Assembly (NCBI GenBank): GCA_038874655.1 | Contig: JAVZBY010000003.1 | Span: 22,718 to 86,717, forward strand | From: Candidatus Woesearchaeota archaeon | Lineage (GTDB): Archaea > Nanobdellota > Nanobdellia > Woesearchaeales > GW2011-AR15 | Reading direction: 5' to 3' | Length of the DNA: 64,000 bases | In this document: positions 15,871 through 61,400 of the stretch, piece after piece | How positions within the stretch are numbered: the stretch's first letter is position 1 | How the letters are laid out: each line of letters starts with the position of its first letter | Position numbers and translations under genes: made by a program | Notes under the pieces: generated by a model | Seen by the model: the letters and a program-made list of their open reading frames with translations, nothing else | Databases searched by the model: none | Told to the model about the DNA's origin: nothing

Positions 15871-16316
15871 ATATTTATTATTTTTTTTCAAAAGAAATTG
15901 TCTTCAAAAAAGATCCTATAGGGGGTTGGAGAGATTTGAAACGTTATAGTGAAGTCAGTGATCTTGTTTCTCGTTTTCAAGATCCATATGAAACAATTGA
16001 AAATAAATTAACCGCTTTAGAAACTTTACAAACAAAAGGCTTTTTACCATATGGCCTATTAATGATTTCTTCTAATGAAAATGAAATAAATAAAATAGTT
16101 GAACAATACAAAAAAGAAGCTTATTTCAAAATTGAAATCAACTTGAATCCAAATTTTGTTTTTTCATCAGCCATAAATGTAGCTATCACCTTAAAAATAC
16201 CATTAAAGATGTCCAATAATAAAAATTATGTGTTTATACCCTTACTCGCAAAGGATATATTTACTTTTTTAGAATTAGTACAACAATATTCTAATAATCT
16301 GCCAAGATTAAATTAA
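15867..16316 (+). CDS. Hypothetical protein
   Basis: ORF; start overlaps the alaX stop. Confidence 0.35.
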   Translation: MNIYYFFSKEIVFKKDPIGGWRDLKRYSEVSDLVSRFQDPYETIENKLTALETLQTKGFLPYGLLMISSNENEINKIVEQYKKEAYFKIEINLNPNFVFSSAINVAITLKIPLKMSNNKNYVFIPLLAKDIFTFLELVQQYSNNLPRLN

Positions 16317-17498
16317 CTTATCCATCTCCTCTTTTATTCTTGCTTCATATTGATATTTAGTTTCTCCTTCTTTTTTTTCAGAACTTAAAAAATGCATCAT
16401 GTTTTTTATTAATTTTATTTGTTTTTCTTTTGTGAAATTTTTAAAAACTGGTTGTTGCTCTATTAATGTATTTTCAACATCTAAAGTGTTAGAAGCTTCT
16501 ATTTTTATTTCTTCATATTCCTTTGTAGATAAACCATTAGTATTTCTCATTACAAAATAAGCTCCATTTAAAAAATCATAAATCTTTTTCCATTCAATAT
16601 CACTAGGTTTTCCACTTTCCAAAACACCATAAACCCTTATTAAAACCAAAGTATTGTAAAATTCATTTCCTTTTATTTTATCTAAAATTTCATTTGTAAT
16701 TAATTCTGGTGTTTTATGTGTTGCATTAATAGTTATTGTAAAAACATTTTTTATATTGATATTTTCCCTTATTAAATTTCCATTATCATAAATATAAAAG
16801 CCACCTCCTTTTAATTCTTCTAATTCATGAAAATTATTTGGAAATAAAGGCCCAGGATAAACAATATTTTTATATCCTTGTAAATCTACTTTTTCAATAA
16901 TATGAACATGACCACCTGCATAGTAATCAAAATTTTTTGGTAAATAAGAAATGCCAAAAGATTCCATTTTATCCATGTTTTTTGGCTTCAACTCTGTAAT
17001 AGCAGAATGAAACATGAATATTTTAAAACCATCTTCTTTTTCCAAATGCTCCAAATCTAAATCTTCATAATACAATTTTTCTAATTGTCCTTTTCTACCT
17101 AGCATTCCTGTTATTTTCGCTCCTGTTTTTTTGTCAATGGTAAATTTTAATCTTAATTTCTTATTTATAACTTCACCTTTAACAACATTAACACATAAAC
17201 CAGCTTCTTCTAAAACATCTAACATTGTTTTTCCACTAGGAGAATAATCATGGCTACCTGCTATCAAATAAACATTTATGTTTTTTTCTTTTAATTCACG
17301 AAACTTTTTAACAACATCTTTTATATTATTTATACTTGGAATTGCATTATTAAACAAATCACCTGAAATTAAAATAAAATCAACTTCTTTTTTTATAGAA
17401 ATATCAATTGCTTTGAAAAATGCTTCTGTGTTTAGCTCTTTTAATTTATCCTCTCGCCAAGAACCTATATGACAATCTGCTAAATGACTGAATCTCAT
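16308..17498 (-). CDS. mre11: Mre11/SbcD-family DNA double-strand break repair nuclease (calcineurin-like phosphoesterase)
   Basis: Phosphoesterase motifs I FSHLADCHIG, II ISGDLFN and III IAGSHD, plus GGHVH later; 396 aa. Confidence 0.75.
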   Translation of the reverse strand: MRFSHLADCHIGSWREDKLKELNTEAFFKAIDISIKKEVDFILISGDLFNNAIPSINNIKDVVKKFRELKEKNINVYLIAGSHDYSPSGKTMLDVLEEAGLCVNVVKGEVINKKLRLKFTIDKKTGAKITGMLGRKGQLEKLYYEDLDLEHLEKEDGFKIFMFHSAITELKPKNMDKMESFGISYLPKNFDYYAGGHVHIIEKVDLQGYKNIVYPGPLFPNNFHELEELKGGGFYIYDNGNLIRENINIKNVFTITINATHKTPELITNEILDKIKGNEFYNTLVLIRVYGVLESGKPSDIEWKKIYDFLNGAYFVMRNTNGLSTKEYEEIKIEASNTLDVENTLIEQQPVFKNFTKEKQIKLIKNMMHFLSSEKKEGETKYQYEARIKEEMDKLI

Positions 17499-17594
17499 AT
17501 TATAAATAAATAAAACAAAATATTTAAAATTAATTAATAAAAAAACAATGAATTAATAAAAAAATATAAAAAAAATTATAAATAATAAAAGATA

Positions 17595-19412
17595 TCAACA
17601 ACTAGAATATTTTTTAAGTAAATTGAAAATTTCTTGTTTATCTGTTTCTGTTCCTGGAAAATAATTATCTGCCCAATACATTAACTCATTAAAAGCTTTA
17701 TCAAAACACCAACCATCAACTTTCATTCTATACAAAGCAATTGCTAATCCTGTTCTATGTTGTCCATATTTACAATGCACAAAAATTGGATAATTATCTG
17801 AATCTTGCAAAACACTTAAAACATTATTCATCCAAGATTCTTTTGCTCCTGGATAAGGCAAATGTATATATTCTAAACCTGCTTTCTTTGCAATATAACT
17901 ATTATCAATACCTTGTAAATCTAAAACAGTTTTATAACCTTTTGAAGCTAACCATTGATATCCTAATTGTGAGGGTTGTGCTCCTGCTGCTATATTACTA
18001 TTAATCTCTCTAAACAAAACTATATTTTCATTATTAGATAAAGTAGATAATTGAGTGTATTTATTTTTTGGAATATCATCAAAATCAACATAATCTATTT
18101 TTAGATTTGGAAAATTTAAAACAAAACTAAATTGTGAAGGCAACTTTTCAGCCCAAACTCCAAAATGATTAGCAACTGCTCTCTCAGAACCATCTGACAA
18201 GGTATTTATTATTCTAGGCACACTATTTTCTTCTATAACCAATGTTGTTGAACCTCCACCATCCATATTAATCATATTTGTGCTTCCATATTTCAAATGA
18301 ATTTCTCCTAACTCTAATGCAGAAACCCCTTCACTAATTCCTGGATTTCTGCCATCAACAACAATTATATTAAGCCATTTTTCATTTTCATCTAACCCAA
18401 TTGAAGTTCTTGGATTTAAATAATCATAACCCTCTTTATGTTGTGGATTTCCTTTATAAAATCTATCTAAAATTTTTCCATTTTCAATAATATGATTAAA
18501 TCCTGAGATTGCATATTTATAATTATTAGGCATGTTTGGCATCATATATATTTGATTATCCTCGCTAACAAACAAAGTTACATCTGGTTTAAACTCAGGA
18601 TTAGAATAAGGTTTTCCATCATAAGCAGCAAAGCCATTTACCTCATTTGTATTGCCTATATCAAAACCACCTCCATTTATTGCTAATTGTAAATTATTTT
18701 GTCTTAAAAAATCAGAAGTTGTCATTACATTAGGCGCTATTTTAGGAGTAACATAAAATCTTAATGTTGGATCATACAAATCAACCTTAACCACAAAAAT
18801 GTGTAAAGGTCTTGGATCATTAATTTCTTCATATTTATAAAAAATTCCTCTATAAATAGGGTTAAATCCTACTAAATTTTTTGGTATGTAATCTTTTGAA
18901 TATTTTAAATCTATAACTTTATTTTTTAACTCCAATTTTTGATTTTCATATTTTATTGTTAAATTTGTATTTAATTCTGTTATTATCAAAATTTTCTCTT
19001 CCTCATCCAGATATGTTTTAGTTAAATTAATATCAAAAAAAGTATATTCAATATTCAAACCTTTTTTTTTAAAATCCTCAACATTTAAACATTCATTAAA
19101 CTTTTTTTCTAGATAATATTCTAACTGCTCATCCAAATAATTAAGACCATATCTCTCTATTGTTTTTTCTGTTGAAATTTTTAAACATTGTTGAACAGAA
19201 AACTCAAATGAATTCTTTAATGCTGTAAAATCAAAATTTCGGTTATTTTGAGTTGCTTTTTTAAATAATGCTCTATTAAATAATATGAACAATAGTAAAA
19301 TAAACAAACCTATAATTATAAATAAGGTTATTTGAGTTTTTTTGTTAAATATTTTTTTAGTGGACATAATAATATTAAACAACAACTTATTAAAATAACT
19401 TATTAAAAACAT
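17595..19412 (-). CDS. Membrane-anchored protein with a central DGGGS-containing domain and a C-terminal Cys-based (CX5R) protein phosphatase domain
   Basis: N-terminal hydrophobic helix ITLFIIIGLFILLLFILF; NMDGGGSTTL motif; C-terminal VHCKYGQHRTGLAIALY (the HCxxGxxR active-site motif of tyrosine/dual-specificity phosphatases). Confidence 0.55.
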   Translation of the reverse strand: MFLISYFNKLLFNIIMSTKKIFNKKTQITLFIIIGLFILLLFILFNRALFKKATQNNRNFDFTALKNSFEFSVQQCLKISTEKTIERYGLNYLDEQLEYYLEKKFNECLNVEDFKKKGLNIEYTFFDINLTKTYLDEEEKILIITELNTNLTIKYENQKLELKNKVIDLKYSKDYIPKNLVGFNPIYRGIFYKYEEINDPRPLHIFVVKVDLYDPTLRFYVTPKIAPNVMTTSDFLRQNNLQLAINGGGFDIGNTNEVNGFAAYDGKPYSNPEFKPDVTLFVSEDNQIYMMPNMPNNYKYAISGFNHIIENGKILDRFYKGNPQHKEGYDYLNPRTSIGLDENEKWLNIIVVDGRNPGISEGVSALELGEIHLKYGSTNMINMDGGGSTTLVIEENSVPRIINTLSDGSERAVANHFGVWAEKLPSQFSFVLNFPNLKIDYVDFDDIPKNKYTQLSTLSNNENIVLFREINSNIAAGAQPSQLGYQWLASKGYKTVLDLQGIDNSYIAKKAGLEYIHLPYPGAKESWMNNVLSVLQDSDNYPIFVHCKYGQHRTGLAIALYRMKVDGWCFDKAFNELMYWADNYFPGTETDKQEIFNLLKKYSSC

Positions 19413-20974
19413 TAATTAAAATTTATACCATGAAACTCTTTTTCTTCAATTTTCTTTTGAAAATTTTTCTCGTATTTTCTTACAAAATCCTCAAACAACG
19501 GAATCTTAACTGGAATTGCAAATTTTGAAAAATTACTAGTTATGATTGCTTCTCCTTTATCTAATGAAGCTATTGTTCTAGAATCATTGCTTAAATCTTG
19601 TGCTGCTGATTCTATTATTGCTTGTCTTTCTGGTTGCATTTCAATTCCTAATATAATTTTTGTGTTCATATTTGCTAAAATTTCTCTTGGAATTAGAGAG
19701 GGTAATTGTGTTATTGCTGTTAGTCCTATTTTAAATTTTCTACCTTCTCTGGCAATTGTAGAAAATATATTAGGCCCAGTTTCTAAAACCTCTTTGCCTA
19801 AAACTCTTGGCGCTTCTTCAAGAATAATATTAATAACAGGTTTATTCTTCAATTCTCCACTAGATTTATACATTTTATATCTGTTAAAAATTTCTGTTGT
19901 AATTAAACTACCAACTAAGATTTCTATATTTCCCGAAAAATTAGAAGTATCTATAATAACAATTTTTCCTTTTTCTAATTCATTGCAAATATCATTGATA
20001 GTTGTTTGACCTAAATTTAAATCAAATATTCCTTTAGGATATATTTTAAAAGGCTCTACATCAATATCTAATAATTGAGATAATTTTCTTTTTAAAACAG
20101 CTAAAGTAGATTCATTAACAACTGTATCTGTTTCTTTTTCTAACAACAAAGATTCAATCCAATTTTCATTATACTTTCTATAATAGACATTAATGGCTTC
20201 TTTTTGTGCTGTTGTTAATTCCAGAGAACCATCAAAATGATAGGGCATTAATTGCTTTAAATTAATTTTTAATGTTCTTTGTCCAGGGGGTACATTATTA
20301 GGTGTATAATATACTAATTTTTTATTTGGATGATCTTTCAAGCCTATTTTATTTCTACCAAAATATTCATCATGGGGGTCCAAAACTAAAACACCTGCAT
20401 AATCTTTATCCATTAAATCCCATAACATAACATAAGTTAAATTACTTTTTCCTCTACCTGTTGTTGCTGGTATCAAGATATGATGACTCAAAACATCATC
20501 CCCTTTCAAATAAATTGGGACATCTAAAACTTTTGAACCACTTCTAAGATAACCAAAAAAAAGAGAATTTTCAGGTTTTGTTAGAAACTTTAAATCTTCA
20601 CTATTAATCTCTCTTAATTCTGAAAAAAAATCTGGTAAATTTTTAGCTAAACTTATTTTATTATCCTCAATAACTAACATATTTTTTAATTTTGCTAGAT
20701 TATAACTTCTAAGTTTTTCATCCATAAAATATAGATCAGAATTTTCTTCTAATTTTAAACCACTGATTAACTCTAAATTTTCTGAAGAAATTTGACTACC
20801 ATAAATTAGATCATATACTTGAAAAATTGTTTTATGCTTATTTTTATTTTCTGCTATTAGTAATTCTCCTATTTCAATTCTTTCATCAGATTTTTGTCTT
20901 GCTATAATTTCTCCGAACTTTCCAGAAATAATAATTCCTTTGCAATTTTTAGAATTTTTCATAAAAATAAACAA
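19412..20974 (-). CDS. herA: HerA-like hexameric ATPase/helicase (FtsK-HerA superfamily)
   Basis: N-terminal HAS-barrel-like segment; Walker [12 protein letters not shown]; Walker B-like [10 protein letters not shown] (hhhhEEAP, compare the HerA DEAH box); Arg-rich region after it; its start codon shares a base with the downstream gene. Confidence 0.7.
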
Positions 20975-21073: not shown

Positions 21074-21307
21074 TTATTTTCTGCCTCTAGCCATCTTTGC
21101 TCTAGAGACATCTCCTTTTGAATCAACAAAGTATAGATAGCCTTTTTCTTTTTTAACTCCTACTTTTGCTACTTTTTCAACTTTTTGTTTTCCTTTTTTT
21201 CTTCCTCCTCTAGCCATTTTTGCTCTAGAGATATCTCCTTGCTTATCTACAAAATATAGATAGCCATCTTCTTTTTTAACTCCTACTTTTGCTACTTTTT
21301 CAGCCAT
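21074..21307 (-). CDS. Small basic protein built from an in-frame tandem duplication (2 x 41 aa)
   Basis: Protein repeats AEKVAKVGVKKEDGYLYFVDKQGDISRAKMARGGRK and VEKVAKVGVKKEKGYLYFVDSKGDVSRAKMARGRK; the DNA repeat period is 123 bp at about 85-90% identity; strong SD AAGGAGGT lies 6 nt before the ATG. Confidence 0.5.
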   Translation of the reverse strand: MAEKVAKVGVKKEDGYLYFVDKQGDISRAKMARGGRKKGKQKVEKVAKVGVKKEKGYLYFVDSKGDVSRAKMARGRK

Positions 21308-21435: not shown

Positions 21436-22122
21436 TTAAGATATTTCTATCTTCAAAGCTTCTTTAATTTCATCCTCAGAAACAGAACAGCCATTTAATT
21501 TAATCCCCCATAAAAGCCCTTCTAATAAAGTTCTTTTTGAATTAGGTAATTTTAAATAATATTCTTTAAACAACCCCATTTCATATGCTATTAAAACTAT
21601 CTCAAATGTTCTAATTATAGTTAAATTAACTATTTTTTTAAAATCCTTAATTTTTTGTTCATCTGCTTTTACAACTAAATGAAGTTTATTTTCTAATCTC
21701 TCATGCACTAAATTTGGATTTTCAACTAAATTTCTAGTAATAAACTCGTCTATAACTATTGCGTCAGAATTTAAAACTAATGCTGCTGCAATAGTTTCTA
21801 TTTCTGCATAATGAGCAATTTTTATAAAGTTATCGTGCGCTTTAAAAAACGAATTTATTTCATTAAAAAGAAAATTTGCCTTATATTTTATTTTATTATC
21901 ATCTACTAACTTTATAATTCCTTCCTCTAAAAGCTTTAATATTTGTATTGCCTCATATTTAAATTTCTTTGATTCCAAAGGTTTATCAATCACTTCTCTT
22001 TTAACTGATTTTGTTATAAAAAATTCTCCTTTAAATTGTTCTTTTAGTGGTTTTAAAATCCACAATAAATTATTCAATGAAAGTGTAATTAAAGGTCCTG
22101 TGTCAAAAACTAAAGATTTCAT
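21436..22122 (-). CDS. PIN-like domain protein with a roughly 100-aa C-terminal extension
   Basis: N-terminus LVFDTGPLITLS (conserved Asp) and later AEIETIAAALVLNSDAIVIDE resemble PIN-domain acidic motifs. Confidence 0.45.
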   Translation of the reverse strand: MKSLVFDTGPLITLSLNNLLWILKPLKEQFKGEFFITKSVKREVIDKPLESKKFKYEAIQILKLLEEGIIKLVDDNKIKYKANFLFNEINSFFKAHDNFIKIAHYAEIETIAAALVLNSDAIVIDEFITRNLVENPNLVHERLENKLHLVVKADEQKIKDFKKIVNLTIIRTFEIVLIAYEMGLFKEYYLKLPNSKRTLLEGLLWGIKLNGCSVSEDEIKEALKIEIS

Positions 22123-22175: not shown

Positions 22176-22763
22176 TTATAAATTAAATATTGCTCTTGCT
22201 TTTTTCATTCTATCTTGTACATTTGTCTTATTTTTATAAGTTTCAATTATAGGTGTTTTACCGACATAATCCATTAAATCCCATAGAGATATGCCCAATG
22301 CATCAGCAACTTGTCCTAATGAAATACCATGTTCAAACATTCTTGATGCTTTTTTTATTTGTGCTTTTTCTAATGCTTCTTTTATATAACTTTTTATGTA
22401 AGAATCTTTTTTGGACAAATCCTTAATTATACTTTTCAATTCATTTTCATAATTAGAATTTGAACCATTTTCTAAATAAGTTAATGCATTTTTAAATTTT
22501 ACAATAATTAAATCTGAGATATCATTATATTTATAGAGTTTTGACAAAGCATAAATTATAACTGCAATTGTCAAAGTATCCTTATCTTGAAAAATAGATG
22601 CATTATGTATAACATGATCACTTAACTCTCTTAATTTAAACAATTCTTTTTTTTCTACAATGGAGATTGCTTCATTTAACACATTAAGAATATCTTTTTT
22701 CACAATAGGATTCATAAATATAAAAAAAATTATAAAGTATAAAAAACTTGTGATATATCTCAA
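22176..22763 (-). CDS. Putative helix-turn-helix protein
   Basis: C-terminal GISLGQVADALGISLWDLMDYVGK looks like an HTH; the true start may be at the internal MNPIVKK. Confidence 0.4.
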   Translation of the reverse strand: MRYITSFLYFIIFFIFMNPIVKKDILNVLNEAISIVEKKELFKLRELSDHVIHNASIFQDKDTLTIAVIIYALSKLYKYNDISDLIIVKFKNALTYLENGSNSNYENELKSIIKDLSKKDSYIKSYIKEALEKAQIKKASRMFEHGISLGQVADALGISLWDLMDYVGKTPIIETYKNKTNVQDRMKKARAIFNL

Positions 22764-29585: not shown

Positions 29586-29717
29586 ATGACAAACATAAAC
29601 ATTGAAATTCCTGATGAATTACATAAAAAATTAAAAATTCAATGTGCCATAGAAGAAAAAACATTGAAAGAATACATTGTCAATGTTTTAGAAGAAAAAG
29701 TAAAAAAATTAAAATAA
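29586..29717 (+). CDS. Unannotated 43-aa ribbon-helix-helix (CopG/Arc/MetJ-like) protein
   Basis: MTNINIEIPDELHKKLKIQCAIEEKTLKEYIVNVLEEKVKKLK reads as a beta-strand plus two helices with the RHH register. It is too short for the ORF track and lies directly upstream of the 1275-aa surface protein. Confidence 0.45.
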   Translation: MTNINIEIPDELHKKLKIQCAIEEKTLKEYIVNVLEEKVKKLK

Positions 29718-29821
29718 AATTTATAAAATTTCATAAATTAAAGAAAATGAAAAAAAATTTAAATCATATAAAAAAATATTTAAACAATTTATTTTTACAA
29801 AATTCTTATCATCTTAATTCT

Positions 29822-32800
29822 ATGAAAAGCCATGCATTCAACCCCCGAAAAAAACGCATGGCTTTTATTTTTTTTATAATTAATCTATTATTTCTAATTT
29901 TAATTTTAAATAATGTTTACTCGGTTGATTTTTCCCCTGTTGAATTATCTCCAAAAAACGCAACAACTCTTGATAATTTAATTTGCTCTTGGAACACAAG
30001 TTTAAATCCTAAAGTAAATGTTAGTTGGTATAATGGCTCTAATCTTTATAGTGTTGTAAAAGAAACAACAAGTATACAAATTTTAAATAATTTCATTGCA
30101 AGAAAAGGTGAAACTTGGAATTGCACAGTTGTAGAGTGGAATGATGCTAATAATATTGGAAGTAGTTCAATAACAATTAGAAACGCACCTCCTTTTCAAC
30201 CTAATGTGGTTAATGACACAATAGAAGAAGATTCAACCTATATAAGAGATATATCAACCACTGATCCAGATGGTGATGAAATAATTTCCTATATATGTAT
30301 TCCAAACACATTCACAATTAATAATGGAATTATCTCTTGGACACCAACATCAAGTAATGTTGAACCTGAGAAATCAAAATTATATAACTTTACATGTCTT
30401 ACCTTAGATTCAGAAGGATTATCAAATTCAAAAAAATTTTCTCTCAATGTTACTGCAAGAAATGACCCTCCATTTTTTAACCCTAGTTTAGTAAATATTT
30501 CCAAATATGAAAATCAAAAAATACAATATATAATAACTGCAAGTGATGAAGAGAATCCAACAGGAAAGTTTAATTTAACATTTGACAATAAAATATGTCC
30601 TTATGATTCAAAAACAGCATATGAGTTAGTTAGAATTAACAATTACACTTTTATTTTTCAAGTAATAAATAATCAAACACTTCCTTATAGTTTAGTTGGA
30701 AACTGTTCTATAACTTTAAGTTTATATGACCCTATGGATACTAATATCTCTACTAATAGTTCTATTAACATTGAAGTTATTGCAATAAATCATCCTCCAA
30801 TAATAACCAATATTGAAAGCAAATCAAGAAATTATAGTCAAGGAGAATATTTTAATTTATCTATAAATGCAACTGACATTGATGAAAACGAATTAATAAA
30901 TTTCTTTGTTATTACACCTACTTGTAGCTTCAACCCATGGAATATAACGATATTAAACAACAGTAGAAATGCTTCTGCATTATTAAAAGCAACTCCGTTA
31001 AATGAGAGCCATATAAAATGCAAGCAAATAAAAATAAGAGCAAGTGATACAAAAAATGCTTATTCTGAAGTTAATCTTACTTTAAATATTACCAATGTAA
31101 ATGATCCACCAATCATAAAAGAAATAAGCAATCATATTAATAATAGTTTTTCAAATATAAACTTAAGTAATTTAACTGCTTTTGCTTATGTTAAATTTAG
31201 ATATTATATAAATGCTACTGATCCTGACATTGAATATGGAACAGATCCTAGTGATTCTTTAACATTTAATATAAATTCTTCATTATGTTTTGATTGTCCT
31301 TTTATAAGTATTAATTCAAATACAGGAGAAATAAATTTCACACCTAACTTAGATAATATTGGAAAAACTTATTCTTATAAAGTAAATGTCAGTGATAAAT
31401 ATGGTTTATTTGACGAAAAAATACTTAAAATAACCATTTTAAATAATAGTGTACCCTATTTTAATCAAACACCACCAGATATTTATGCAAAAGAAGATAT
31501 TTTATATACCTTAAAAATTAATGCTACTGATAAAGAAGATATAAATGTCAGCTTTTTTCTAAACACAACTTTATTCAATATTACAAACACAGGATTAATA
31601 AATTTCACACCAACATGCCAAGATGTAGGAAACTACTCTGTTTTAATTACAATAAGAGATACTTATGGCGCAGAAAACTCTAGTATCATGAGAGTATATA
31701 TAAATATGAGTCCTGATTTACCTATAATAATACCAATACAAAACACTACATTATTTGAAAATGAAGCTTATTATTTAGAAATAATTGCTAGTGATGATGA
31801 TTTATTATGTAGTCAAGATGATAATTTAATTTTCAGTTATAATTTTATAAATGGTTCTGAAAGTTCATTAAGTGATTTTATTTTTGAAAATATAAACAAT
31901 AGTGGAAATTATAAAGCCCTCTTATCATTCCAAACTATTTTAGGTAGTCAAGGAATTTATATAATCAATTTCAGTGTGGTTGACAATTATAATTTAAAAA
32001 ATTCATATTTATGGGAATTAACTGTAATAAACAGAACAAATCCTCCTGTAATTAATAACATAACACCTTATGGTAGTCCTTATACAAATTATTCAAATGG
32101 TTGGAGACCCAGATCAAATTTTTTAGGTGATTACACAAATATAAATATTTCTGAAGGAATGACCATTATTTTTGATCACAATAGCACAGATCTAGATAAA
32201 AACACTTTAAATTTTACATGGTTAAGAAATAATCAACAAATAGGTGATAAAAAAAACTTAAGTTTATTCTTTGATTATGAAAGTCATGGAAATTATAACA
32301 TAACACTTATAGTTTCTGATATCGTAAATAATAGAATTGCTAACTCTGTTTCTTTTTCATGGAACATAAGTGTTAGAAATAATAACAGACCTCCTATTTT
32401 AAATAATTCTCTTCCTAATATCACAGTAAATAAAACTATAAGTATTCCAAATTACTTTACTTGTAGAGATATTTTGCCGGGCTATATTTGTGATGAGCCA
32501 AGATTTTTTGACCCTGACAATGATAATTTAACATTTACACATTCAAATGCTACAAAAGTTTCTATTTCCATAAACAAAAATTCCATAAGCTTAACTGCAT
32601 TGGAATTAGGCAATGAAACAATAACCTTTTATGCATCTGATGGAACTTACACAATTGAAAGCAACCCTGTTATTATAAATGTAATTAGTTTGCCAGAACA
32701 AAATCAACAAGTCAGTCAATCTACATCGACAAGAACCTCACAAAGCACTAATTATGTGCCTTATTCTGTTTTACAAGAAGTGGAAAAAGAAAAAGAGATT

Positions 32801-33469
32801 TATTTAGATATTATTGTTCCAGAGCAATTAACAATTTATCAAAATGAAACAATAAGACAAGTAATTAACATAAAAAATGAAGGCAACACCACTTTAAGAG
32901 GTATTATATTATCTGCATCCACAAATTCGAGCTCTGCTGATTTAAGCTTTTCTAATTCATTTATCTCAGAATTAAAACCAAATGAAATTGTAAAAACAGA
33001 TTTAATCATAAAAGATTACAAATTAAAAAACAATTATGAGATAATAATATGGGCTAATGTCACAGAACCTAATTACAGAGATAAAGCAATTATTTATGTT
33101 AATGCAATAGAAAAAACTAGAGGAAATCAAAGTATAACTGCAACAAAAATAACATTTGCACAAGATTTATTATCAAGTAATCCTGAATGCATAGAATTAA
33201 ATGAATATTTAAAGAAATCACTTAATTATATGGAAGCAAAAAATTATGAAGAAGCTGAGAAAATTATTGATTCTGTAATCCAAGGCTGTAAATACTTAGT
33301 AAGTCAAAGTAAATTAAAAGAAGAAAGTCCAAAAGGGTTGTTATTAAATTTAAAAATAACCAATCCCTATATAAGAGGTGCTATAATTTTAACAATTTTA
33401 GCAATAATAACTATTGTAGCTATGACAATTAAATTAAAAAAATCAAATAACGAAGAAAACAATCTATAA
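29822..33469 (+). CDS. Cell-surface protein with multiple cadherin/Ig-like repeats, N-terminal signal peptide and C-terminal TM anchor
   Basis: Signal MKSHAFNPRKKRMAFIFFIINLLFLILIL from ATG 29822; the called ORF extends back to 29642, and alternative ATGs lie at 29747 and 29642. Recurring module boundaries NDPPFF / NHPPII / NDPPII / NPPVINN / NRPPILNN; very many NxS/T sequons; C-terminal IILTILAIITIVAMTI then KLKKSNNEENNL. Confidence 0.65.
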   Translation: MKSHAFNPRKKRMAFIFFIINLLFLILILNNVYSVDFSPVELSPKNATTLDNLICSWNTSLNPKVNVSWYNGSNLYSVVKETTSIQILNNFIARKGETWNCTVVEWNDANNIGSSSITIRNAPPFQPNVVNDTIEEDSTYIRDISTTDPDGDEIISYICIPNTFTINNGIISWTPTSSNVEPEKSKLYNFTCLTLDSEGLSNSKKFSLNVTARNDPPFFNPSLVNISKYENQKIQYIITASDEENPTGKFNLTFDNKICPYDSKTAYELVRINNYTFIFQVINNQTLPYSLVGNCSITLSLYDPMDTNISTNSSINIEVIAINHPPIITNIESKSRNYSQGEYFNLSINATDIDENELINFFVITPTCSFNPWNITILNNSRNASALLKATPLNESHIKCKQIKIRASDTKNAYSEVNLTLNITNVNDPPIIKEISNHINNSFSNINLSNLTAFAYVKFRYYINATDPDIEYGTDPSDSLTFNINSSLCFDCPFISINSNTGEINFTPNLDNIGKTYSYKVNVSDKYGLFDEKILKITILNNSVPYFNQTPPDIYAKEDILYTLKINATDKEDINVSFFLNTTLFNITNTGLINFTPTCQDVGNYSVLITIRDTYGAENSSIMRVYINMSPDLPIIIPIQNTTLFENEAYYLEIIASDDDLLCSQDDNLIFSYNFINGSESSLSDFIFENINNSGNYKALLSFQTILGSQGIYIINFSVVDNYNLKNSYLWELTVINRTNPPVINNITPYGSPYTNYSNGWRPRSNFLGDYTNINISEGMTIIFDHNSTDLDKNTLNFTWLRNNQQIGDKKNLSLFFDYESHGNYNITLIVSDIVNNRIANSVSFSWNISVRNNNRPPILNNSLPNITVNKTISIPNYFTCRDILPGYICDEPRFFDPDNDNLTFTHSNATKVSISINKNSISLTALELGNETITFYASDGTYTIESNPVIINVISLPEQNQQVSQSTSTRTSQSTNYVPYSVLQEVEKEKEIYLDIIVPEQLTIYQNETIRQVINIKNEGNTTLRGIILSASTNSSSADLSFSNSFISELKPNEIVKTDLIIKDYKLKNNYEIIIWANVTEPNYRDKAIIYVNAIEKTRGNQSITATKITFAQDLLSSNPECIELNEYLKKSLNYMEAKNYEEAEKIIDSVIQGCKYLVSQSKLKEESPKGLLLNLKITNPYIRGAIILTILAIITIVAMTIKLKKSNNEENNL

Positions 33470-42403: not shown

Positions 42404-43570
42404 TTAGTTATTTCTCTTTTTAAGAATAAAAATAATCAAAATTATATTCAATAAAATTAAAATTATAACACCTATAATTAAAATATTTAATTGAAATTTA
42501 TTTCCTTGTCCAATAACTTTTGCACTCACATAATTTTTAAAATTCACCGAATCTGGTGATACATAAGCAGTATAAGTTTTTTCAGAAATTTTATCTTCAT
42601 AAATAACCTTTGTAGAGAGCTCATATTCACCTATAGTTAAACCTTCTGTATTCCAATACGCATTCATAATTGAAGTTGATTTTTCATTAATACTAACAGG
42701 AATTGCATTAAAAGTTGAAATTAATTTATTATCTTTAAAAACATCAACTTTTCCTTCTGCCTTAATTTGCTTGTTCCATTTATTTCTTAAATAGATATCT
42801 AGTTTTGCAATTTGACCTATTTTAAAATTATTTATTTCTATTTTTTCAATTTCAACTTCTAAATTTCCAACATCAAATTTTTGATAGAATTCTAAAATCT
42901 TAGAATCATATTCTAATGTTGCTTCTAAAACATAGCTTCCAGAATGTTCAGTTTGCCAGGTTAAAATAAAACTTTCTTCTTTATTCGACTCTATTGACTT
43001 TGATTCTGATGTTGCTTTATATAATTCTTCATTTGTTGGACCCTTAATTACTAAATTAATTTTTGCATTTTCTATTTTTTCCTTTCCAAAATTTTTTATT
43101 GCAAATGTAAAAATAATAGGCTCATTAACTTTTGTATTTGTTATAAATAAATTACCCTCTGCATATTTTCCAGGATAGGGTACATTAACTATTATTTTAT
43201 GCATTACTGCAGGAGCTGCCATTATAACATCATTTTGCATTTCTCTAGGTAATTCCAAAACAATTAAAGAACATGATCTTTCACCTGGAGGTAATTCATT
43301 TGGTAGTTGAATCTTATAATTAATCCATGTTTCTTTATTTTCAATAATCATCGTTTCTTTATCAAGTGAAATATATTTTGCTAATTCTCCTTCTTTCGAA
43401 ATTATTATTTTAGTAGGTGTATCATCAACAACTACTCTAAAAGCCCCTTCTTGTTGAAATTGATTAAAATCAAACTTATTTTTAGCAGGAGCTATTCCTA
43501 ATCCAAAGATCATATTTATATTTACTAAAAACATAATTAACATAATAAATTTTAAAAATATTTTTCTCAT
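42404..43570 (-). CDS. Surface protein (388 aa) with N-terminal signal and C-terminal TM anchor; translationally coupled to the giant gene
   Basis: Its start ATG overlaps the stop of the 2485-aa gene (ATGA at 43567-43570); C-terminal NILIIGVIILILLNIILIIFIL then KKRNN. Confidence 0.5.
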   Translation of the reverse strand: MRKIFLKFIMLIMFLVNINMIFGLGIAPAKNKFDFNQFQQEGAFRVVVDDTPTKIIISKEGELAKYISLDKETMIIENKETWINYKIQLPNELPPGERSCSLIVLELPREMQNDVIMAAPAVMHKIIVNVPYPGKYAEGNLFITNTKVNEPIIFTFAIKNFGKEKIENAKINLVIKGPTNEELYKATSESKSIESNKEESFILTWQTEHSGSYVLEATLEYDSKILEFYQKFDVGNLEVEIEKIEINNFKIGQIAKLDIYLRNKWNKQIKAEGKVDVFKDNKLISTFNAIPVSINEKSTSIMNAYWNTEGLTIGEYELSTKVIYEDKISEKTYTAYVSPDSVNFKNYVSAKVIGQGNKFQLNILIIGVIILILLNIILIIFILKKRNN

Positions 43571-46500
43571 GCCTGCTCACCCACTATATAAATTGTTACA
43601 TATTTTGGGCCGCCAGGCTCATACATCGGAACTGTTATATTAATATCAATTTGTGCAGTATCATGTTCATCACTATAATTTAAATTTCTTAATAATGTGG
43701 AATTTGAAATTGATATATCTGTCATATTTGCCCATTCTGTTTGTGAATTTGCATAATCAAAAGAAGGCATTTCACTAGTATTATCTGCTTTATATCTAAA
43801 ATAAATTGTATTTAAAGGCGCCATTATAAATGGTGATTGATTAGCACCAATTCTTGTAATATTAACAACAATATTACCATTATTCTCTATTATTAGAGGT
43901 GGATAACCATTATCAGTATCTTTTGATTCTAAAATATTCATTATTCCAAAATCAATTGAATTAACAGTTAAATTTATACTTAAAAAAGATTCAATTGTAA
44001 AGTTCCATGCTAGACTCCATAGACTATAATTAAAACCATCATATGCCCGAACACTCCAATTAATTAGTCTATCAACACAAAAATCATAATTTGGTTGATA
44101 ACTTGTATCAGAAACATTAATACTAACATCTGGACCACATTCGAAAGTAGAGGAAAAACTAATATTTATTGTATAATTTATATCATCATAATCTAAATCT
44201 GAGCTATTAAACAGAAATAAAGGTTTTCTTTCATGTATAGTATGATTATTGTTTGTTGGGGTTATTAATATTGGAATAGTTGGTGGACTATTAACAATTG
44301 TTGTTTTTGTTGAATTATAATTACTTGAATCAATACCATCGTATGCTTTTATAGTGCAGTTCCATATTTCATTCTTTTTTGTATTAGAACTGGCTATAAA
44401 TGATATTAAAGTATTTGTGTTATTATTCACACTAACATTTCCTGATGAAAATAAATTAGTTCCATTATACCAAAAATATTCAACTCTTAAAGAGGTGTTT
44501 AAATCATCAACGATAGTTGCATAACAATTTAAATTTGATGTGGTATTTGGCTCATTAGGTAAAATTTGTATGTTTGAAACTCTTGGAGGGGAATTTAAAT
44601 TAATTCTTACCTTTGTACTATTTTTAGTAATTCCATCTTGATAACCATCATTAGGTGTTACTGAGCAAATTAGTTCATCGTTTAAATTAAACGCATATCT
44701 TAATAATTCATTATTAGTTCTATTTAATATACCATAATTATATTCATTTAGAATTTCTTCATCAGATAAAATATAATTATATATTTTGATTTCATCTATA
44801 AACCCATTATAAGGTGCTTTTCCTGTATTATGTAAAGCCCAATTTGACAAACCACTAGATGCACCAATAACTAAATTTAAAATTGAGTTTGAAATATTAC
44901 TATTCACTTGAGAAGAATTTTTATTCATACCATTAACATATAATTTAAAAATATCTCTATTTAAAGTTAATAACAAATGTGTCCAATTATTTTGTTTTAT
45001 CGTCTCATTACTAATCACTTCATTTCCAAACTTTCTAATAATTAATGCTGAATCTGTTGTGTTTATTGAATATCTACCACCTAATATTAAATTTTCCCTG
45101 GAATCAAAGGTACCTACTTGAAAAACATCCTTATAATTAGATAAATCTAAAGTAAAATTATAAACCTGTGAACCTGTTTTATTCAATTTAAATACAAAAA
45201 TAACATTATTTGTTGAATTTAACCAATAAAAACCTAGGCCATAAATATCATTATTTGAATCAATTAAAATTTTCTGTATGCTATCATTAAATGGTGTTGG
45301 ATTTAAAATATAATTCCATAAGTTATTACCATTTTTATCAAACTTCATCACATTAATATAGCTATCTATTGGTTGATTTGCGATTCCTGCAATTATTAAA
45401 TTATCTTCACTATCTACCTTCATATCTTGAAGTGTATCATTATATATTGTTGGGTTTGTAGTAATATTGAAAAGATTCACTCCTGTAGGTGAAAATTTCA
45501 CTATTCTATACTGAAAATTACCTAAAAGTTGATCATATCCTCCTATATAATACGAACCATCTAATGCCTTAACAATAATATTAGCAGAATCAATTCCTGA
45601 ACTAATTTGAGGAGTATAATTCCACAAATTTACACCATTTTCATTAAAAGCTGAAACAAACCAATCATAAACAGTTGTTGCTTTAATCCCCACTGCAATT
45701 ATCAATGTATCATTATAAACTAAAACATCATTATAAAGATCTGTTCCTGATGTCGGATTAAATGTTCTATTCCATAAATAAGTTCCTGTAGAATTATATT
45801 TAACTAAATAATGACTATGCCCTACTACTGAATCATATATATATCCTGCTACATAAATGTTATTTCTTGAATCTACATCTACACCTAAATATCTATCATG
45901 ACCTAAATTTGGATAAGTATAATTAAAAAGTAAAGTTCCATTTGGTGAAAATTTCATAATTATTTGATCAATAGAATAAGGGTTATTATTACCTGCTCCA
46001 ACAGCTATAAAATTATCTTCATTATCAACTATTAAATCTGTTAAATATTCATAATATGTATCATCATTTAAATCATTTAAAAAGTAATTTTTTCTAAATT
46101 CATATAAAGTTTTGTTTTTATTATTTTCATTTAAAGAAACTCCTGGATAACCATTAAGTAAAAATATTGAATATATTCCATTACTCAGAATATTATCTAT
46201 TACATCAAACCTTGTAGGCTTTATCCATAATGAAATAGAGATATTATTACTTTTTAGTAAATTTGTATTATTAACATAAATAAAATTAGTGCCATTAAAA
46301 TTATATCCTCCAAATACCTTACCAAATTTTCTTGACCAATTTAAATTATTTGAAAAATTTATACTAGTATTATAGCCACTGTAATCTTTTGTAAAAGTAT
46401 TATTACTTCCTCCTTCAAACGGCAAATACAACAAATAAATACTTTGATTATTTTTATACCAAGTAGTTATATTTACAACTTGATCTCCATCTGCATCAAA

Positions 46501-49500
46501 AACATTATTAGCATTACAAGTCAAATTATTAAAAGTATAAGCAGGATCAGGCGTGATATAAGGATTATCATGTGTTGGTGCATCATTAAGTTTTATTTTC
46601 ACACTTGAGCTGTTTTTAGTTATGCCATCCTGATAACCATCATTGGGTGTTATAGAACATTTCCATTCATCTTCAAAATTAGTATTTGTAAAAGATATAA
46701 TATTACTTAATTTTCCTGAAATTCCTAAAAGATAATCATTATATATCTGCTGATCTGATAATACAAAATTATACACCTTAACCTCATCAATTGTACCATT
46801 AAAAAATTGTGTATTTGGTAAACCTATTCCCCCTCTTCTACCTATGTTGATAGATTTATTTACAGTATAAATAACATTACCATTTGCTTGCTTACTATTA
46901 TCCAAAACCCCATTTACATATAAAAGTAATTTCGAATTATCATATACTCCTACTATATAATACCATTTTCTTTTTCCTAATACTGTATTAGAGGTAATAT
47001 TTTGAGATGCAAAACCATTGTTATTCGATGCGAAAAACCTAACTCTACTTTCATTAGAAATTTGTAATCCATAGCCATCATCTCCCCCACCATCTTCATC
47101 AGTACTTATAATCATTTGATAAGTATTATTATCAAAAAGATATATCCATGCAGAAACACTAAAATTATTATAAGGCCTTAAATTAGGATTTGAAGGAAAA
47201 ACAATATATTGATAATTTCCATTAAACACATAAGCACCTCCTATTATACCTGCAGTTGTGTCAAATGTAGCATTAACCACAGATGCATTAGTAAAACTTA
47301 CATAATCTAATGTTGAACCATTTTTTGAATATGTTCCAGTTATTGAACCTCCTTCAAACGGCAAATACAACAAATAAATACTTTGATTATTTTTATACCA
47401 AGTAGTTATATTTACAACTTGATCTCCCTCTGCATCAAAAACATTATTAGCATTACAAGTCAAATCACTAAAAATATTTGCTGGATTAGGTGTGATATAA
47501 GGATCATCATGTGTTGGTGCAGAAGGATATATTTTAACAGAACTACTGTTTTTAGTTATCCCATCTACATAGCCATCATTTGGAGTTATAGAGCATTTAA
47601 TTTCATCATTTAATTTTAAATTTAAATATTTTAAATCTAAAAATTGTTCCTTATTTGAGAAAGAAAAAGGATAAATTATTGAATTAATATATGAAATAGA
47701 GAGAGGAATATTAAAAATTTTAACTTCATCAATAATACCATTAAAAAATTCTGTATTAGGTTGATAAGTACCACCTATTCTACCTATATTTATAGAATTA
47801 TTAACAGTATATACTACATTTCCATTTCCTATTTTTCTACCAACTAATAAACCATTAATATAAAGAGATATTTCAGAATTATTATAAACTCCAACAATAT
47901 TATACCATATATTTTTTCCTAAAGTAATATTTGAAGTTACATTTTGTAAAGCATAGCCATTAGAATTTAAAACTGCAAAGCTAACTCTTCCTTGATCAGT
48001 TATTCTTAAAAAATATCCATCATCATTACCTCCATCACTATCTGAAGAAATAATTGTTTGATTTGTATTATTTGAATTTAAACTTATCCAAACTGAGATA
48101 CTAAAATTATTATAAGGCCTTAAATCATTATTAGAAGGCACGGAGATATAATCATAATCCCCATCAAAAAAATATGCTCCTCCTATTATACCTGAAAACT
48201 GCAAATATGTTGCATTTACTACACTAACATTTTTTAAAGAAACATAATCTCTTGTAGAACCATTTGAAAAATTATCGCCACTAGTTGAACCTCCTTCAAA
48301 AGGTAAATTTAATGAATAAATACTTTTATTATTAATATACCATGTTGTTATGTTTCTAATAAAATGATCCTCATAATCTATTAGATTTGTAGTATCACAA
48401 AAGATTGTTTTATTTAAAGTTGGTGTTTGTGGGTTAATTTGTGGATTATCATGTATAGGTTCTGTATTATTAATAAAAAACCACAATCCTTCTTCGTAAA
48501 AATAAATTATATCTGGAAACTCTCCTATTTCAGAGGAATATATAATTCTATCACTATTATTAAACTCTATACAATGAACTATTAGATCTATAGCTTGAGA
48601 TGCTAAAATATGATAATATACTGAAATATTATGTTCTCTAACAACACAAGATTGTGGTAAAGTAATATTGTTATTAAGATTAGAAATAATTTTAACATTG
48701 GTAACATTATTTGGTTTATAATAAATTGAGGAGATATAATAATCATTTGCTTCACTACCAGTAAACCAATTACCATCAAAGAAAGCTTGTGCATTAACAC
48801 ATCCTCCTACTGCATTACAACCACTTATATTACTAAATTCAACATAATAATAATAACTAGGATCATAAGCATAATCACTTACATAAGCTAAATCATTTTC
48901 AAACTCAAAAAGCAAAGTAGCATAACCAGCTTTAATCATGTAATTTTTTAGATAAGCAGTTTGATTACATTCAAAATTTGGAATAAACAATTTTTTGATT
49001 TTAACAGAGTTTTCAGATAAATCAGAGTAATTATAAGTGATATTATTAACATCAACTATTAATAATTTATCTAGGAGAGGGTAATTACCACAACTTAGGT
49101 TTAAAAATAACATTTCATCAAAAGTTTGATTATTATCAACAGAGATTTCAGTCCAATTAGCATTAGTAGAGCTAATAGATAAATTAGCAATTCCGCTAGT
49201 ATTAAAAGCCACAATCCATATTTCATTATCTTTTAGATAGGTGTAAGGATTCAGTACAATTATAGAAATTTCAAAAGTTTGATTACTTAGATGAGGCACA
49301 ATCCATTCAATTTTATCAATTAAGCCATTATCATTAGTATCAAAATAATTAACATTTTCAAACAATATTTTCTGATCATCTTTAAACCAATAAACCTTTA
49401 TATTTTCTTTTTTAGATTCTTTAATATTAGTATAAGCTAGGACATTTTCATAATGCAAATCTGATGAAATAACAACATGTTTTTTATTTTCATTTAATAT

Positions 49501-58335: not shown

Positions 58336-58456
58336 AAAAATAGATAAAACACTATAAAACGAAAAAATATTTAAACTTGATTTCTTATCAAAAAAATGTA
58401 TACTGGTTTATAAATTATTTTGTTATTATAAATAGGAAAATCAAGAGGTGGGGAGA

Positions 58457-61400
58457 ATGAATAAGAAAAAAATTTTCTTATTTTTCATAAGTATAATCAT
58501 ATTATCTATTATCTTAAACTTTACATTTGGACAATTTAATACATTAAAAAAAGTTGCTTGTACAGATGATATGAAACAATGTCCTGATGGGAGTTATGTT
58601 ACTAGAAACCCTCTTAATAATTGTAATTTTTATCCTTGCCCTGGAGAAGAGACTAACATAAACCAATGCATTGATAGTGATGGATTAAATTTTACAAAAA
58701 AAAGCACTACAATTAATAATCTAGAAAGAAAAACTGATAGTTGCTTATTAGATATAAATAATAAAGAATCATTTTATATTTATGGAAAATATTTAGCTGA
58801 ATATTATTGTAATAATAATAAAATTAATGTCACTTATATAGATTGTCGCTATGGCTGTATTGATGGTGCATGCTACACTAAAGAACCAAATTGCACAACT
58901 ATTGGAACAGTAATGTATGTTGATCCTTATGGTTATGGTTATATTGGCTGTGATATTATTGCTGAAGGGCCAATTGATCCTGATAAAAGTATATGCATTA
59001 GTTCAAAAACAAGAAAAAATATTTCTTTATTAATACAGGAAAAAGTTAAAGAAAATATTTATCATTATTATAACACATTAACGGGTTTAGATCCAAATGA
59101 AGAAGTTAGAGTTTATATCAGAACTTTTTATAATGGAACTAAAGAATGTTATCCTCCATTAAATAAAAAAGAATCACTCTATTCTATACAAACAAATACC
59201 ACAAATCAAGAAACAAATACAACTAATTTAAATTGTAGCAAAGAAGGAGAAATGTGTGGTGGCTTTGCAGGTTATTTATGCTGTGATGGATTAAAATGTA
59301 AATATGAGAATGGTTTTATAACTTATCCTGATGAATCTGGAGTTTGTGTTCCTATACAAGAAAAAATTCAATGTCAAGATACTGATTATTATAATCTAAG
59401 CATTCCTGGAAATTCAACCAAAGGTAATATAATTAAAAAAGACACATGCTATTATGATGATAATTTAAAAGAATTTTCAGCTTCAAGATCTGGAAAATAC
59501 CTAGCAGAATATTATTGTGATAATAACAATATTAATGTTAGCTATGAAGAATGTTTTATGGGTTGTTATAAATCTGCATGTTATGATAAACTCCCTAAAT
59601 GTAAAACTCTTCCAACAACCATAGACAATCAAGGAACTATTGTATGTAACATTTTAGTTGAGGGCCCTATTGATCAATTTAATAGTTATTGTATTGGTGA
59701 AAGCACTCGTAAAAATAAAAGTTTTGCTTATCAAAGAGAAATAAATCAAACAACAGATTTATATTCAACAACCTTAACAAATTTAAACCCCACTGAAAAA
59801 GTAAGAGCCTTCATAAAAAGTTATTATTATAATTCTACATTTGAGTGTTATCCTCAATTAAATAGTCTCTCACAAAACAATGTGAATAATTTATTAGAAG
59901 AATCCCTATCATATAAAAGTGCTTATTGGATATGTCAAGATGGAACTGAAGTCAATCAAGAAAGTCAAACCTCTTGTAATACTTATGCAGGTTGGTTTAC
60001 AATCGCAAATGAATTTTGTAAAGATAAATGCTCTTTAATTAATAATTCATGTGGTATATTAAATTTCATAATCGGTGAACAATGTAATAATATTGAACAT
60101 GAATCCCCCCTAATATCTTATACCTTAGAAACAAATAAAAAAGTATATGAATATGGTGAAACTGTAAAAATAATTGGCACAGTAATCGGTACTAATAACT
60201 CTGAAGTAAAAACTTGGATTCAAACACCTGATAAAAAAATAAGATTATTAAATGTTAATAAAGAATGTGAACGATGCACTTTAATAAATTGTATTAACAA
60301 ATGCTACTATACTAGTGAATATAAAATAGGTGATGAAACCTCATTTAGAAGCAATGAAGAAATAGAACCTCCTACACCAATAAGACAAGATACTAGTACT
60401 TCTACCAACATGATGACTGGATATGTTGTACTACCTAATCAAGTATATAATGTTTTTTCAAGAGCAATAACTATTATCAACAATACTGAATATGTTAATA
60501 ATGCAACAACTTCTTTTGGTGTATCTATTAATGAGACTAATATTGAGCTAAAGGTTAACGCAAACGAATTACCTTTTGTGGCAGTCCTATTAAAGAATAA
60601 GGAAAAGCTACCTGTAGAGATCCAGGTTAAAGATATAAAAATCTATAAATATATAAATAATGAAAAAGTAGAATTAAAAGATTTATGTAATTCAAATATA
60701 AAAAATAGAGATGTAAATATAGGTTCTAATGAACTTATAGAGATTTCTAGTTGGAATAAAAAATTAAAAAATCAAGAAAATAATGAATGTAACTATAATG
60801 CAAACTCTGGAATTTACGAAGCTGAAGTTGAATACTCAATAAAAAATACTGATACAAGCATATTCAAATCTAAAACATTTTTAGTATTAGACCCTCAAGC
60901 AAATAGTTGTAATCCTGTTTGTAAAGCAATTTCTACTAATAATGAAGGATGGTATAATTCATGTACAGGTGTTTTATTAAAGTATGAAAAATGTAGTATT
61001 ACCTCAAAAGAATACAATCAACCTAAAGAAAATGGAGAATATTGTTTAGCGAATAAAGAGTGTATTAGTAATAGTTGTTCTAATAATAAATGTACAAAGA
61101 AAGAAAGCATTTTAGATATTATAAAAAGATGGCTAAATGGTTGCACTCCAAGTGATGAAATATGTGATGGAAAAGATAATAACTGCAATAATTTAGTTGA
61201 CGAAGGCTGTATATACTGTAGTGATACTGACAAAGGATTTAATGTATATACAAAAGGTATAGTCAATGGAAGAGATAATATAAATATTTATACAAAAACA
61301 GACAACTGCAGAGATAATTATAATTTAACTGAATTTTATTGTTATAAGGACATAGTTTACAATAAAACATATAGATGTCCTTATGGATGTAATGATGGAA

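Follow-up and report, generated by a model that had tools for sequence, protein, structure and literature searches.

Does a herA-mre11 gene cluster that lacks rad50 and nurA represent a rearranged archaeal DNA-repair operon, or do its ATPase and nuclease work in another context, such as defense? This question is raised by a 64,000-nucleotide stretch of Candidatus Woesearchaeota DNA (assembly GCA_038874655.1, contig JAVZBY010000003.1; hereafter, the window). Three co-oriented open reading frames (ORFs) lie on its minus strand at 19412-20974 (herA), 17595-19412 (encoding a 605-aa protein) and 16308-17498 (mre11), which confirms the arrangement given in a first-pass annotation of this DNA. A four-gene operon, herA-mre11-rad50-nurA, has been described for hyperthermophilic and thermophilic archaea (PMC2288612; PMC8708640). 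In the cluster, as in the operons of Sulfolobus, Pyrococcus and Thermococcus, herA precedes mre11 and is read from the same strand. However, only these two genes of the operon are present, an unrelated gene stands between them and, in the clade, nurA is found alone and rad50 is unlinked or undetected.

We read the locus, with a probability of roughly 80%, as an ordinary DPANN herA-mre11 pair for double-strand break (DSB) repair, into which the gene for an unrelated secreted enzyme of the NAGPA family was inserted in one sub-lineage, and not as a new defense system. The earlier proposal that the repair operon was rearranged in a reduced genome is therefore essentially right. The best profile, sequence and fold matches of both proteins are the repair proteins of Sulfolobus, Thermococcus and Pyrococcus, and herA-mre11 is a conserved core.

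Identity of the HerA and Mre11 proteins

The herA gene (19412-20962, minus strand) encodes a 516-aa DSB-repair-type HerA when read from the ATG at 20962. This is the start called by NCBI and is likely to be correct, rather than the TTG at 20974, which would give 520 aa. The protein is 100% identical to MEM3374192.1 (516 aa), which NCBI labels only as 'ATP-binding protein'. The HerA profile PF01935 matches residues 140-362 with 97.5 bits against a cutoff of 23.2. The Walker A motif (ATTGRGKS, aa 166-173, 20444-20467), the Walker B/EEAP box (NIILEEAP, aa 378-385, 19808-19831) and the Arg finger region (AREGRKF, 19733-19753) are intact, with G169, G171, K172, S173, E382, E383, R405 and R408 invariant in 27 orthologs. 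The assignment as a HerA-like ATPase with Walker A and EEAP motifs thus holds. The HAS-barrel, also claimed earlier, was not picked up by Pfam, but it is supported by an AlphaFold2 (AF2) model (pLDDT 74) with N-terminal β-strands at residues 7-56 and further strands at 86-153. The same model aligns to Sulfolobus solfataricus HerA (4D2I) over nearly its full length (516-518 alignment columns; TM-score 0.69-0.70 on the target), which agrees with the presence of the barrel.

The protein was compared with both repair and anti-phage members of the HerA family. The top NCBIfam matches are the repair HerA models NF040819 and NF040937, at 100 and 97 bits (the NF040937 alignment starts from residue 31), as compared to 70 bits for CedD and 47 and 32 bits for the anti-phage HerA models, whose cutoffs are 800-850. 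The equivalog cutoffs of the two repair models (970 and 800) are not reached either; these models were built on narrow thermophile clades, and repair HerA is still the top-ranked family. The top PDB matches are 4D2I and 9x1l, with repair HerAs scoring 89 bits and defense HerAs at most 43 bits. Foldseek searches with the AF2 model gave 4D2I and 9x1m (the Thermococcus kodakarensis HerA-NurA complex) as best matches, and defense HerAs ranked below the repair HerAs. Like the HerA of the archaeal operon, the protein has an N-terminal β-barrel, a RecA-like core with Walker A and B motifs and a C-terminal helical region, although its identity to characterized archaeal HerAs is only ~18-22%. More than 3000 homologs were found; the best 120 are 62-83% identical and come mostly from Woesearchaeota and Nanoarchaeota. 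By orthology, the protein would be a hexameric, ATP-driven translocase of double-stranded DNA.

The mre11 gene (16308-17498, minus strand) encodes a 396-aa nuclease of the Mre11/SbcD family that is 100% identical to MEM3374190.1, labeled 'DNA repair exonuclease' at NCBI. It matches Metallophos (PF00149) with 49.5 bits, and its best NCBIfam model is Mre11_Pyroc, which aligns over the full length (residues 1-389) with 96.9 bits. The best PDB match is Pyrococcus furiosus Mre11 (1II7/4HD0; E 1e-24), in which residues 1-293 cover the nuclease and capping domains. Motifs I (17469-17480), II (17352-17363), IV (17004-17012) and V (16902-16916) are canonical and invariant, as are residues D8, H10, D47, H83, H164, H197 and H199 in the orthologs. 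Motif III (residues 81-84, 17247-17258) reads GSHD and not GNHD. The same is true of all 41 syntenic DPANN orthologs and of 138 out of 138 readable Mre11 sequences among the top 150 library representatives. The Mre11-like nuclease with motifs I-III that had been claimed is supported, with motif III in a noncanonical form.

Compared to Mre11-Rad50 and SbcCD, the window Mre11 shares the calcineurin-like fold, the ligands of motifs I, II, IV and V and the catalytic His, and it retains a C-terminal helical module. It differs in that the motif III Asn, a metal-B ligand (N84 in P. furiosus), is replaced by Ser throughout the clade, and in that no Rad50 or SbcC gene is adjacent. GSHD marks a large and distinct DPANN subfamily of Mre11 with an altered metal-B ligand. 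The C-terminal module (residues 341-396, 16311-16478) is kept in all orthologs, with 2% gaps and a conserved L..EK.EGE motif. By its orthology, the protein probably acts as a metal-dependent nuclease at DNA ends.

Conservation of the pair and the gene at its junction

Synteny was assessed in 82 non-redundant DPANN herA neighborhoods, which were collected and annotated by homology. In 52 of the 82 loci, mre11 is found downstream of herA on the same strand. The two genes lie within 60 bp of each other in 20 loci, where they abut or overlap (several by 4 nt), and are separated by 97-8700 bp in 32. In 24 of the 30 loci where no mre11 was detected, the available downstream sequence is shorter than 5 kb. 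Recurrence of the herA-then-mre11 order in 52 loci places the pairing far beyond chance. Because Sulfolobus acidocaldarius HerA is known to co-precipitate directly with Mre11-Rad50 (PMC2288612), retention of this linkage makes functional sense. The genes found in the spacers are unrelated to one another and occur on both strands; they include GGDEF cyclases, an AAA_14/DUF4143 ATPase, a GNAT acetyltransferase, a methyltransferase and unknowns. Such heterogeneous contents mark the junction of herA and mre11 as permissive for insertion.

The gene that occupies this site in the window (17595-19412, minus strand) encodes 605 aa as the longest ORF and ~590 aa from its probable start, Met16, at 19367. 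The phosphodiester glycosidase (NAGPA) family PF09992 matches aa 239-420 (18153-18698) with 89.5 bits against a cutoff of 25. A C-terminal Cys-phosphatase domain of the dual-specificity phosphatase (DSP)/protein tyrosine phosphatase type (17667-18020) matches PF22741 and PF03162 with 52.1 and 51.4 bits (cutoffs 27). In the glycosidase domain, D384, G385, G386, G387 and S388 (DGGGS) are invariant in 11 aligned sequences, the motif reading NMDGGGS in 10 of them (18249-18269 in the window) and NADGGGS in one. The phosphatase P-loop (HCKYGQHRTG, 17748-17777) is conserved as HC..G..RTG in 5 of 5 fusion proteins. The N-terminus has one transmembrane (TM) segment resembling a class III signal (19278-19337), and the domain that follows contains two invariant Cys residues. 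The description of this protein as membrane-anchored, with a DGGGS domain and a CX5R phosphatase domain, was thus accurate, and the DGGGS domain can be named as NAGPA. In its score and its NMDGGGS motif the protein resembles the NAGPA 'uncovering enzyme' and the bacterial PF09992 family, and in its CX5R-type HCxxGxxRTG P-loop it resembles the PFA-DSP/Siw14-like Cys-phosphatases (PF03162).

It had also been noted that this gene shares a base with the herA stop codon. The one-base overlap (TAATG) exists for the longest ORF; however, the orthologs all begin at the residue that corresponds to Met16, and a 44-nt spacer between herA and this gene is therefore more likely than an overlap.

Outside the close DPANN orthologs, most NAGPA homologs come from bacteria, and they carry extracellular modules such as GH25 lysozyme, SH3, SLH and Por-sorting domains. 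Only a few sequences were seen to combine NAGPA and phosphatase domains behind an N-terminus of the DPANN signal/TM type. Export of the protein is suggested by its signal/TM N-terminus, by its conserved Cys pairs and by its extracellular relatives. Several predicted exported proteins of the window (19278-19345 and the ORFs that start at 25711 and 53987) have in common an N-terminal motif, KKxQ(I/V)(S/T)(I/L)F(I/L)IIG, after which comes a hydrophobic stretch. This motif is similar to the class III (pilin-type) signal peptides of archaea, and all NAGPA orthologs start with it.

The distribution of the gene is restricted. At the herA-mre11 junction, NAGPA is confined to a sub-clade that numbers at least five genomes, namely those of the window, L090, a JGI contig, L091 and L002/L008. 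As in the window, NAGPA-phosphatase fusions lie between herA and mre11 in L090 (GCA_964392465.1; 560 aa) and in the JGI contig (572 aa). In L091, the interval holds a NAGPA gene without the phosphatase together with an opposite-strand gene, and in L002/L008 it holds a methyltransferase, a NAGPA gene without the phosphatase and an opposite-strand gene. Among the 11 closest aligned NAGPA sequences, the window protein included, the DSP domain is present in five and absent in six. The genomes of the sub-clade otherwise have a common gene order: helix-turn-helix (HTH), DUF3368-like, s77, herA, NAGPA, mre11, kinase, alaX, gatB and gatA. Confinement of NAGPA to this sub-clade, with the phosphatase in only some of its members, identifies the 605-aa gene as a lineage-specific passenger. 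The first-pass annotation had listed a lineage-specific insertion into an otherwise standard operon as an outcome that would count against it, and with respect to the herA-mre11 pair this is what was found.

The history that best fits this pattern would run as follows. Of the herA-mre11-rad50-nurA operon, the clade would have kept only the adjacency of herA and mre11, with nurA moved to a separate locus and rad50 unlinked. The permissive junction would then have been taken, in the sub-lineage of this genome, by the gene for a surface-anchored or secreted enzyme. The NAGPA domain of this enzyme is predicted to cleave sugar-1-phosphodiester linkages in glycans, and the C-terminal Cys-phosphatase of some members might then remove the phosphate so uncovered, a two-step scheme suggested by the domain pairing. 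The substrates would be cell-envelope or host glycopolymers, and the enzyme would have no role in DNA repair. Its position inside a repair gene pair appears to be incidental.

The 96-bp spacer between the passenger gene and mre11 (17499-17594) is AT-rich and contains several T7-8 runs, as well as a TTTAAATA box ~25 nt ahead of the mre11 ATG. These features could possibly represent an archaeal terminator and a leaderless promoter, from which mre11 would be transcribed independently, although such features carry little weight at 25% G+C. A scan for bacterial-type promoters and terminators was uninformative for an AT-rich archaeon and returned fewer promoter-like sites than in shuffled sequences.

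Rad50, NurA and the genes upstream of herA

Several searches of the window agree with the earlier observation that it contains neither Rad50 nor NurA. Its large ORFs gave no SMC, AAA_23 or Rad50 match in Pfam, and the only G..G.GK[ST] P-loop in the six frames is that of GatA. Probes from the head domain of P. furiosus Rad50, which had been validated against 1F2T, found no window match at E<=10 with filters off. A hidden Markov model of 64 DPANN NurA sequences likewise found none at E<=10. Among related loci, no Rad50 was detected within 10 kb on either side of herA in the 82 neighborhoods, and no Rad50-like ORF was present in 1.05 Mb of DPANN DNA around herA and nurA loci. Two candidates were rejected. 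The 817-aa ORF that runs off the window end belongs to a Cys-rich secreted protein, as seen on a Logan contig reaching 2.7 kb further. An 856-aa protein of L003 matches only the coiled coil of Rad50/SMC and was found neither by the N-terminal P-loop screen nor by the P. furiosus Rad50 head probes. A literature search returned no statement on the Rad50, NurA or HerA content of Woesearchaeota, and the hinge-less SMC variants of PMC12153180 have no bearing here.

NurA exists in the wider group. L003 encodes a genuine NurA (PF09376, 37 bits) ~2 kb downstream of mre11, and a search with this protein returned 68 DPANN NurA proteins of ~30-38% identity. Among the related herA loci, NurA is near herA only in L003/L004. 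In all three stand-alone nurA neighborhoods sampled, the gene lies among housekeeping genes (topA, sepF) with no herA, mre11 or rad50 nearby. In two Woesearchaeota (L086 6532-11077 and L089 4248-11032), the stand-alone nurA lies a few kb from a divergent topoisomerase I (Toprim/Topoisom_bac), and nurA-topoisomerase I may be a conserved neighborhood.

Upstream of herA, the window carries a PIN-like (DUF3368-like) putative nuclease of 228 aa (21436-22122) and an HTH protein with a UPF0175-like C-terminal domain (22176-22715), both on the minus strand. The HTH protein has 179 aa from Met17 at 22715, the likely start as judged from ortholog alignments; its longest ORF extends to 22763. An HTH and PIN-like pair occurs upstream of herA in 25 related loci, always on the herA strand (25/25); among the 42 loci whose upstream sequence reaches 2.5 kb or more, 16 have it. 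The HTH gene overlaps the PIN-like gene by 4 nt in most orthologs. In L041, the HTH, PIN, herA and mre11 genes all overlap and form one four-gene operon. Orthologs of the PIN-like protein are 41-62% identical, with D7, E43, E57, E107, D125 and E126 invariant. Precomputed DUF3368 (PF11848) matches exist for the orthologs in L090, L091 and L003, but they were not reproduced by hmmscan of 16 orthologs. Matches of the HTH orthologs to UPF0175 are weak and were obtained in 12 of 15 (best E 0.0017). A single-sequence AF2 model of the PIN-like protein reached a pLDDT of only 41. The pair resembles the COG2886/COG2405 (UPF0175/DUF3368) toxin-antitoxin pair; however, both proteins of the window clade are larger and vertically conserved. 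An hhalign probability of only 0.8% led us to reject the idea that the PIN-like protein is a cryptic NurA.

Directly upstream of herA, and outside the span covered by the first-pass annotation, is s77 (21077-21307, minus strand), an unannotated gene for a basic 77-aa protein. It consists of two tandem modules of ~38 aa (GYLYFVDKxGDVSRAKMARG) and is 90% identical to L002 345-578. Fifteen sequences, the window and L002 among them, carry it near herA. It is directly beside herA in the window and in 13 related loci, on either side and either strand, and in L002 and L005 it is ~6-9 kb upstream. Some orthologs have long Lys/Ala-rich tails. The s77 protein matches no family or PDB entry, and profile searches against the PDB with the PIN-like, HTH and s77 proteins returned nothing meaningful. 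It resembles small proteins of the nucleic-acid-binding or chromatin-like type.

Elsewhere in the window, which has a uniform G+C content of ~25% and no compositional anomaly, very large predicted surface proteins are abundant. Among them are a protein of 2485 aa that carries LamG/ConA-like lectin repeats (43567-51024, minus strand), a 1275-aa protein with Ig/PKD/cadherin-like repeats (29642-33469, plus strand) and two predicted Cys-rich secreted proteins, one of 1284 aa (58448-62302, plus strand) and one of 817 aa (62356 to the window end). Such proteins fit the episymbiotic lifestyle of DPANN archaea.

Alternative readings and what the locus means

A number of observations weigh against an ordinary repair pair with a passenger. 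HerA and Mre11 both fall below the NCBIfam equivalog cutoffs (~100 bits as compared to 500-970), and their orthology was drawn from best-hit ranking, fold and synteny, not from a tree. The five-motif set of Mre11 is not complete, given that the canonical Asn of motif III is absent. To our knowledge, Rad50 is an obligate partner of every characterized Mre11, and it was found neither in the window nor in the 1.05 Mb of related DNA. Lastly, the three genomes that carry the fusion have all three genes pointing the same way and only 44-98 bp apart, and some co-transcription and functional coupling of these genes is conceivable.

This compact arrangement, kept while NAGPA diverged to 40-50% identity, is what speaks for the three genes being one unit, in which the phosphatase would clean DNA ends (e.g., 3'- or 5'-phosphates) and NAGPA would handle glycosylated or modified DNA. 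We consider such a unit very improbable. The protein has a signal/TM segment at its N-terminus and the conserved Cys pairs that are typical of exported proteins, and its NAGPA relatives are multidomain enzymes that work outside the cell. Roughly half of the syntenic orthologs have no phosphatase domain, extra genes (some of them opposite-strand) interrupt the arrangement in L002 and L091, and the gene is not present at all in most of the clade. A role in defense, with the HerA ATPase working against phages or plasmids and Mre11 and/or the phosphatase as its effector, was the other context suggested by the first-pass annotation. The anti-phage systems Sir2-HerA (Nezha), DUF4297-HerA and TdpAB do share with this cluster a HerA-family hexameric ATPase of recognizably similar fold and an adjacent nuclease-type gene. 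Generic PADLOC HerA profiles match the ATPase core (best 93 bits), and weak PADLOC PDC-S70 matches were obtained on the upstream HTH and PIN-like genes. However, neither Mre11 nor the 605-aa protein has a PADLOC match, no Sir2, DUF4297 or TdpB-type effector is present, and the sequence and profile scores given above are far nearer to repair HerA. The herA-mre11 pair is also near-universal in the clade. It is vertically conserved and slowly evolving (HerA identity of 60-83% over more than 3000 hits), like a pair of core genes and unlike a variable island, and it sits in housekeeping synteny with alaX, gatB and gatA. The composition is uniform, and no patchy, strain-variable distribution with flanking mobile elements was seen. 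The defense proposal is accordingly extremely improbable.

A third reading keeps both proteins in end resection but dispenses with Rad50. Here, HerA and the GSHD Mre11 would form a self-sufficient helicase-nuclease, with Mre11 docked on the HerA hexamer as NurA is elsewhere, resecting ends without Rad50 (lost) or an obligatory NurA, and perhaps assisted or regulated by the HTH and PIN-like pair. The herA-mre11 linkage, the only one conserved, is often translationally coupled through 4-nt overlaps, and the clade-wide GSHD motif sets this Mre11 subfamily apart. Absence of a Rad50-like ORF from the regions searched, the HerA-Mre11 contact known in Sulfolobus (PMC2288612), the strand agreement of the HTH-PIN pair with herA and the overlapping operon of L041 are all consistent with such a machine. 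In addition, one metagenome contig (P0416, ENA, 7060 bp) encodes a 954-aa protein that joins a complete HerA in frame with a complete GSHD Mre11. This is the only such case in the collection and comes from a single 7-kb contig; it may be a real Rosetta-stone fusion, or it may be a stop-codon, frameshift or assembly artifact where the two genes overlap by 4 nt. Against the reading, a missing linkage is not the same as absence from the genome, and many Woesearchaeota have NurA. Some metagenome-assembled genomes of Parvarchaeota, other members of DPANN, are reported to encode Rad50/SbcC along with Mre11/SbcD (PMC7779479). Moreover, the C-terminal module of Mre11, which binds Rad50 in characterized Mre11s, is kept in all orthologs. 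We therefore regard self-sufficiency of the window pair as unlikely. Its extension to a large DPANN clade, with a minimal Rad50-independent resection machine whose genes are coupled, occasionally fused and often preceded by the HTH and PIN-like pair, is likewise doubtful. If true, it would be the first Mre11 lineage to work without its universal ABC-ATPase partner.

An ordinary repair pair with a passenger thus remains the preferred reading, and as posed the finding is an ordinary one: a conserved repair pair and a passenger gene, in a lineage where the four-gene operon of thermophiles has been dispersed. It is of value for annotation in that the two proteins are named at NCBI only as 'ATP-binding protein' and 'DNA repair exonuclease'. 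Rad50/SbcC is nearly always encoded beside Mre11/SbcD. What stands out across the clade is that hundreds of DPANN genomes have retained the herA-mre11 linkage and not mre11-rad50, together with the loss of the motif III Asn from Mre11 and the lack of a nearby rad50. If Rad50 is truly absent from these genomes, this would bear on how DNA ends are resected in minimal archaeal cells.

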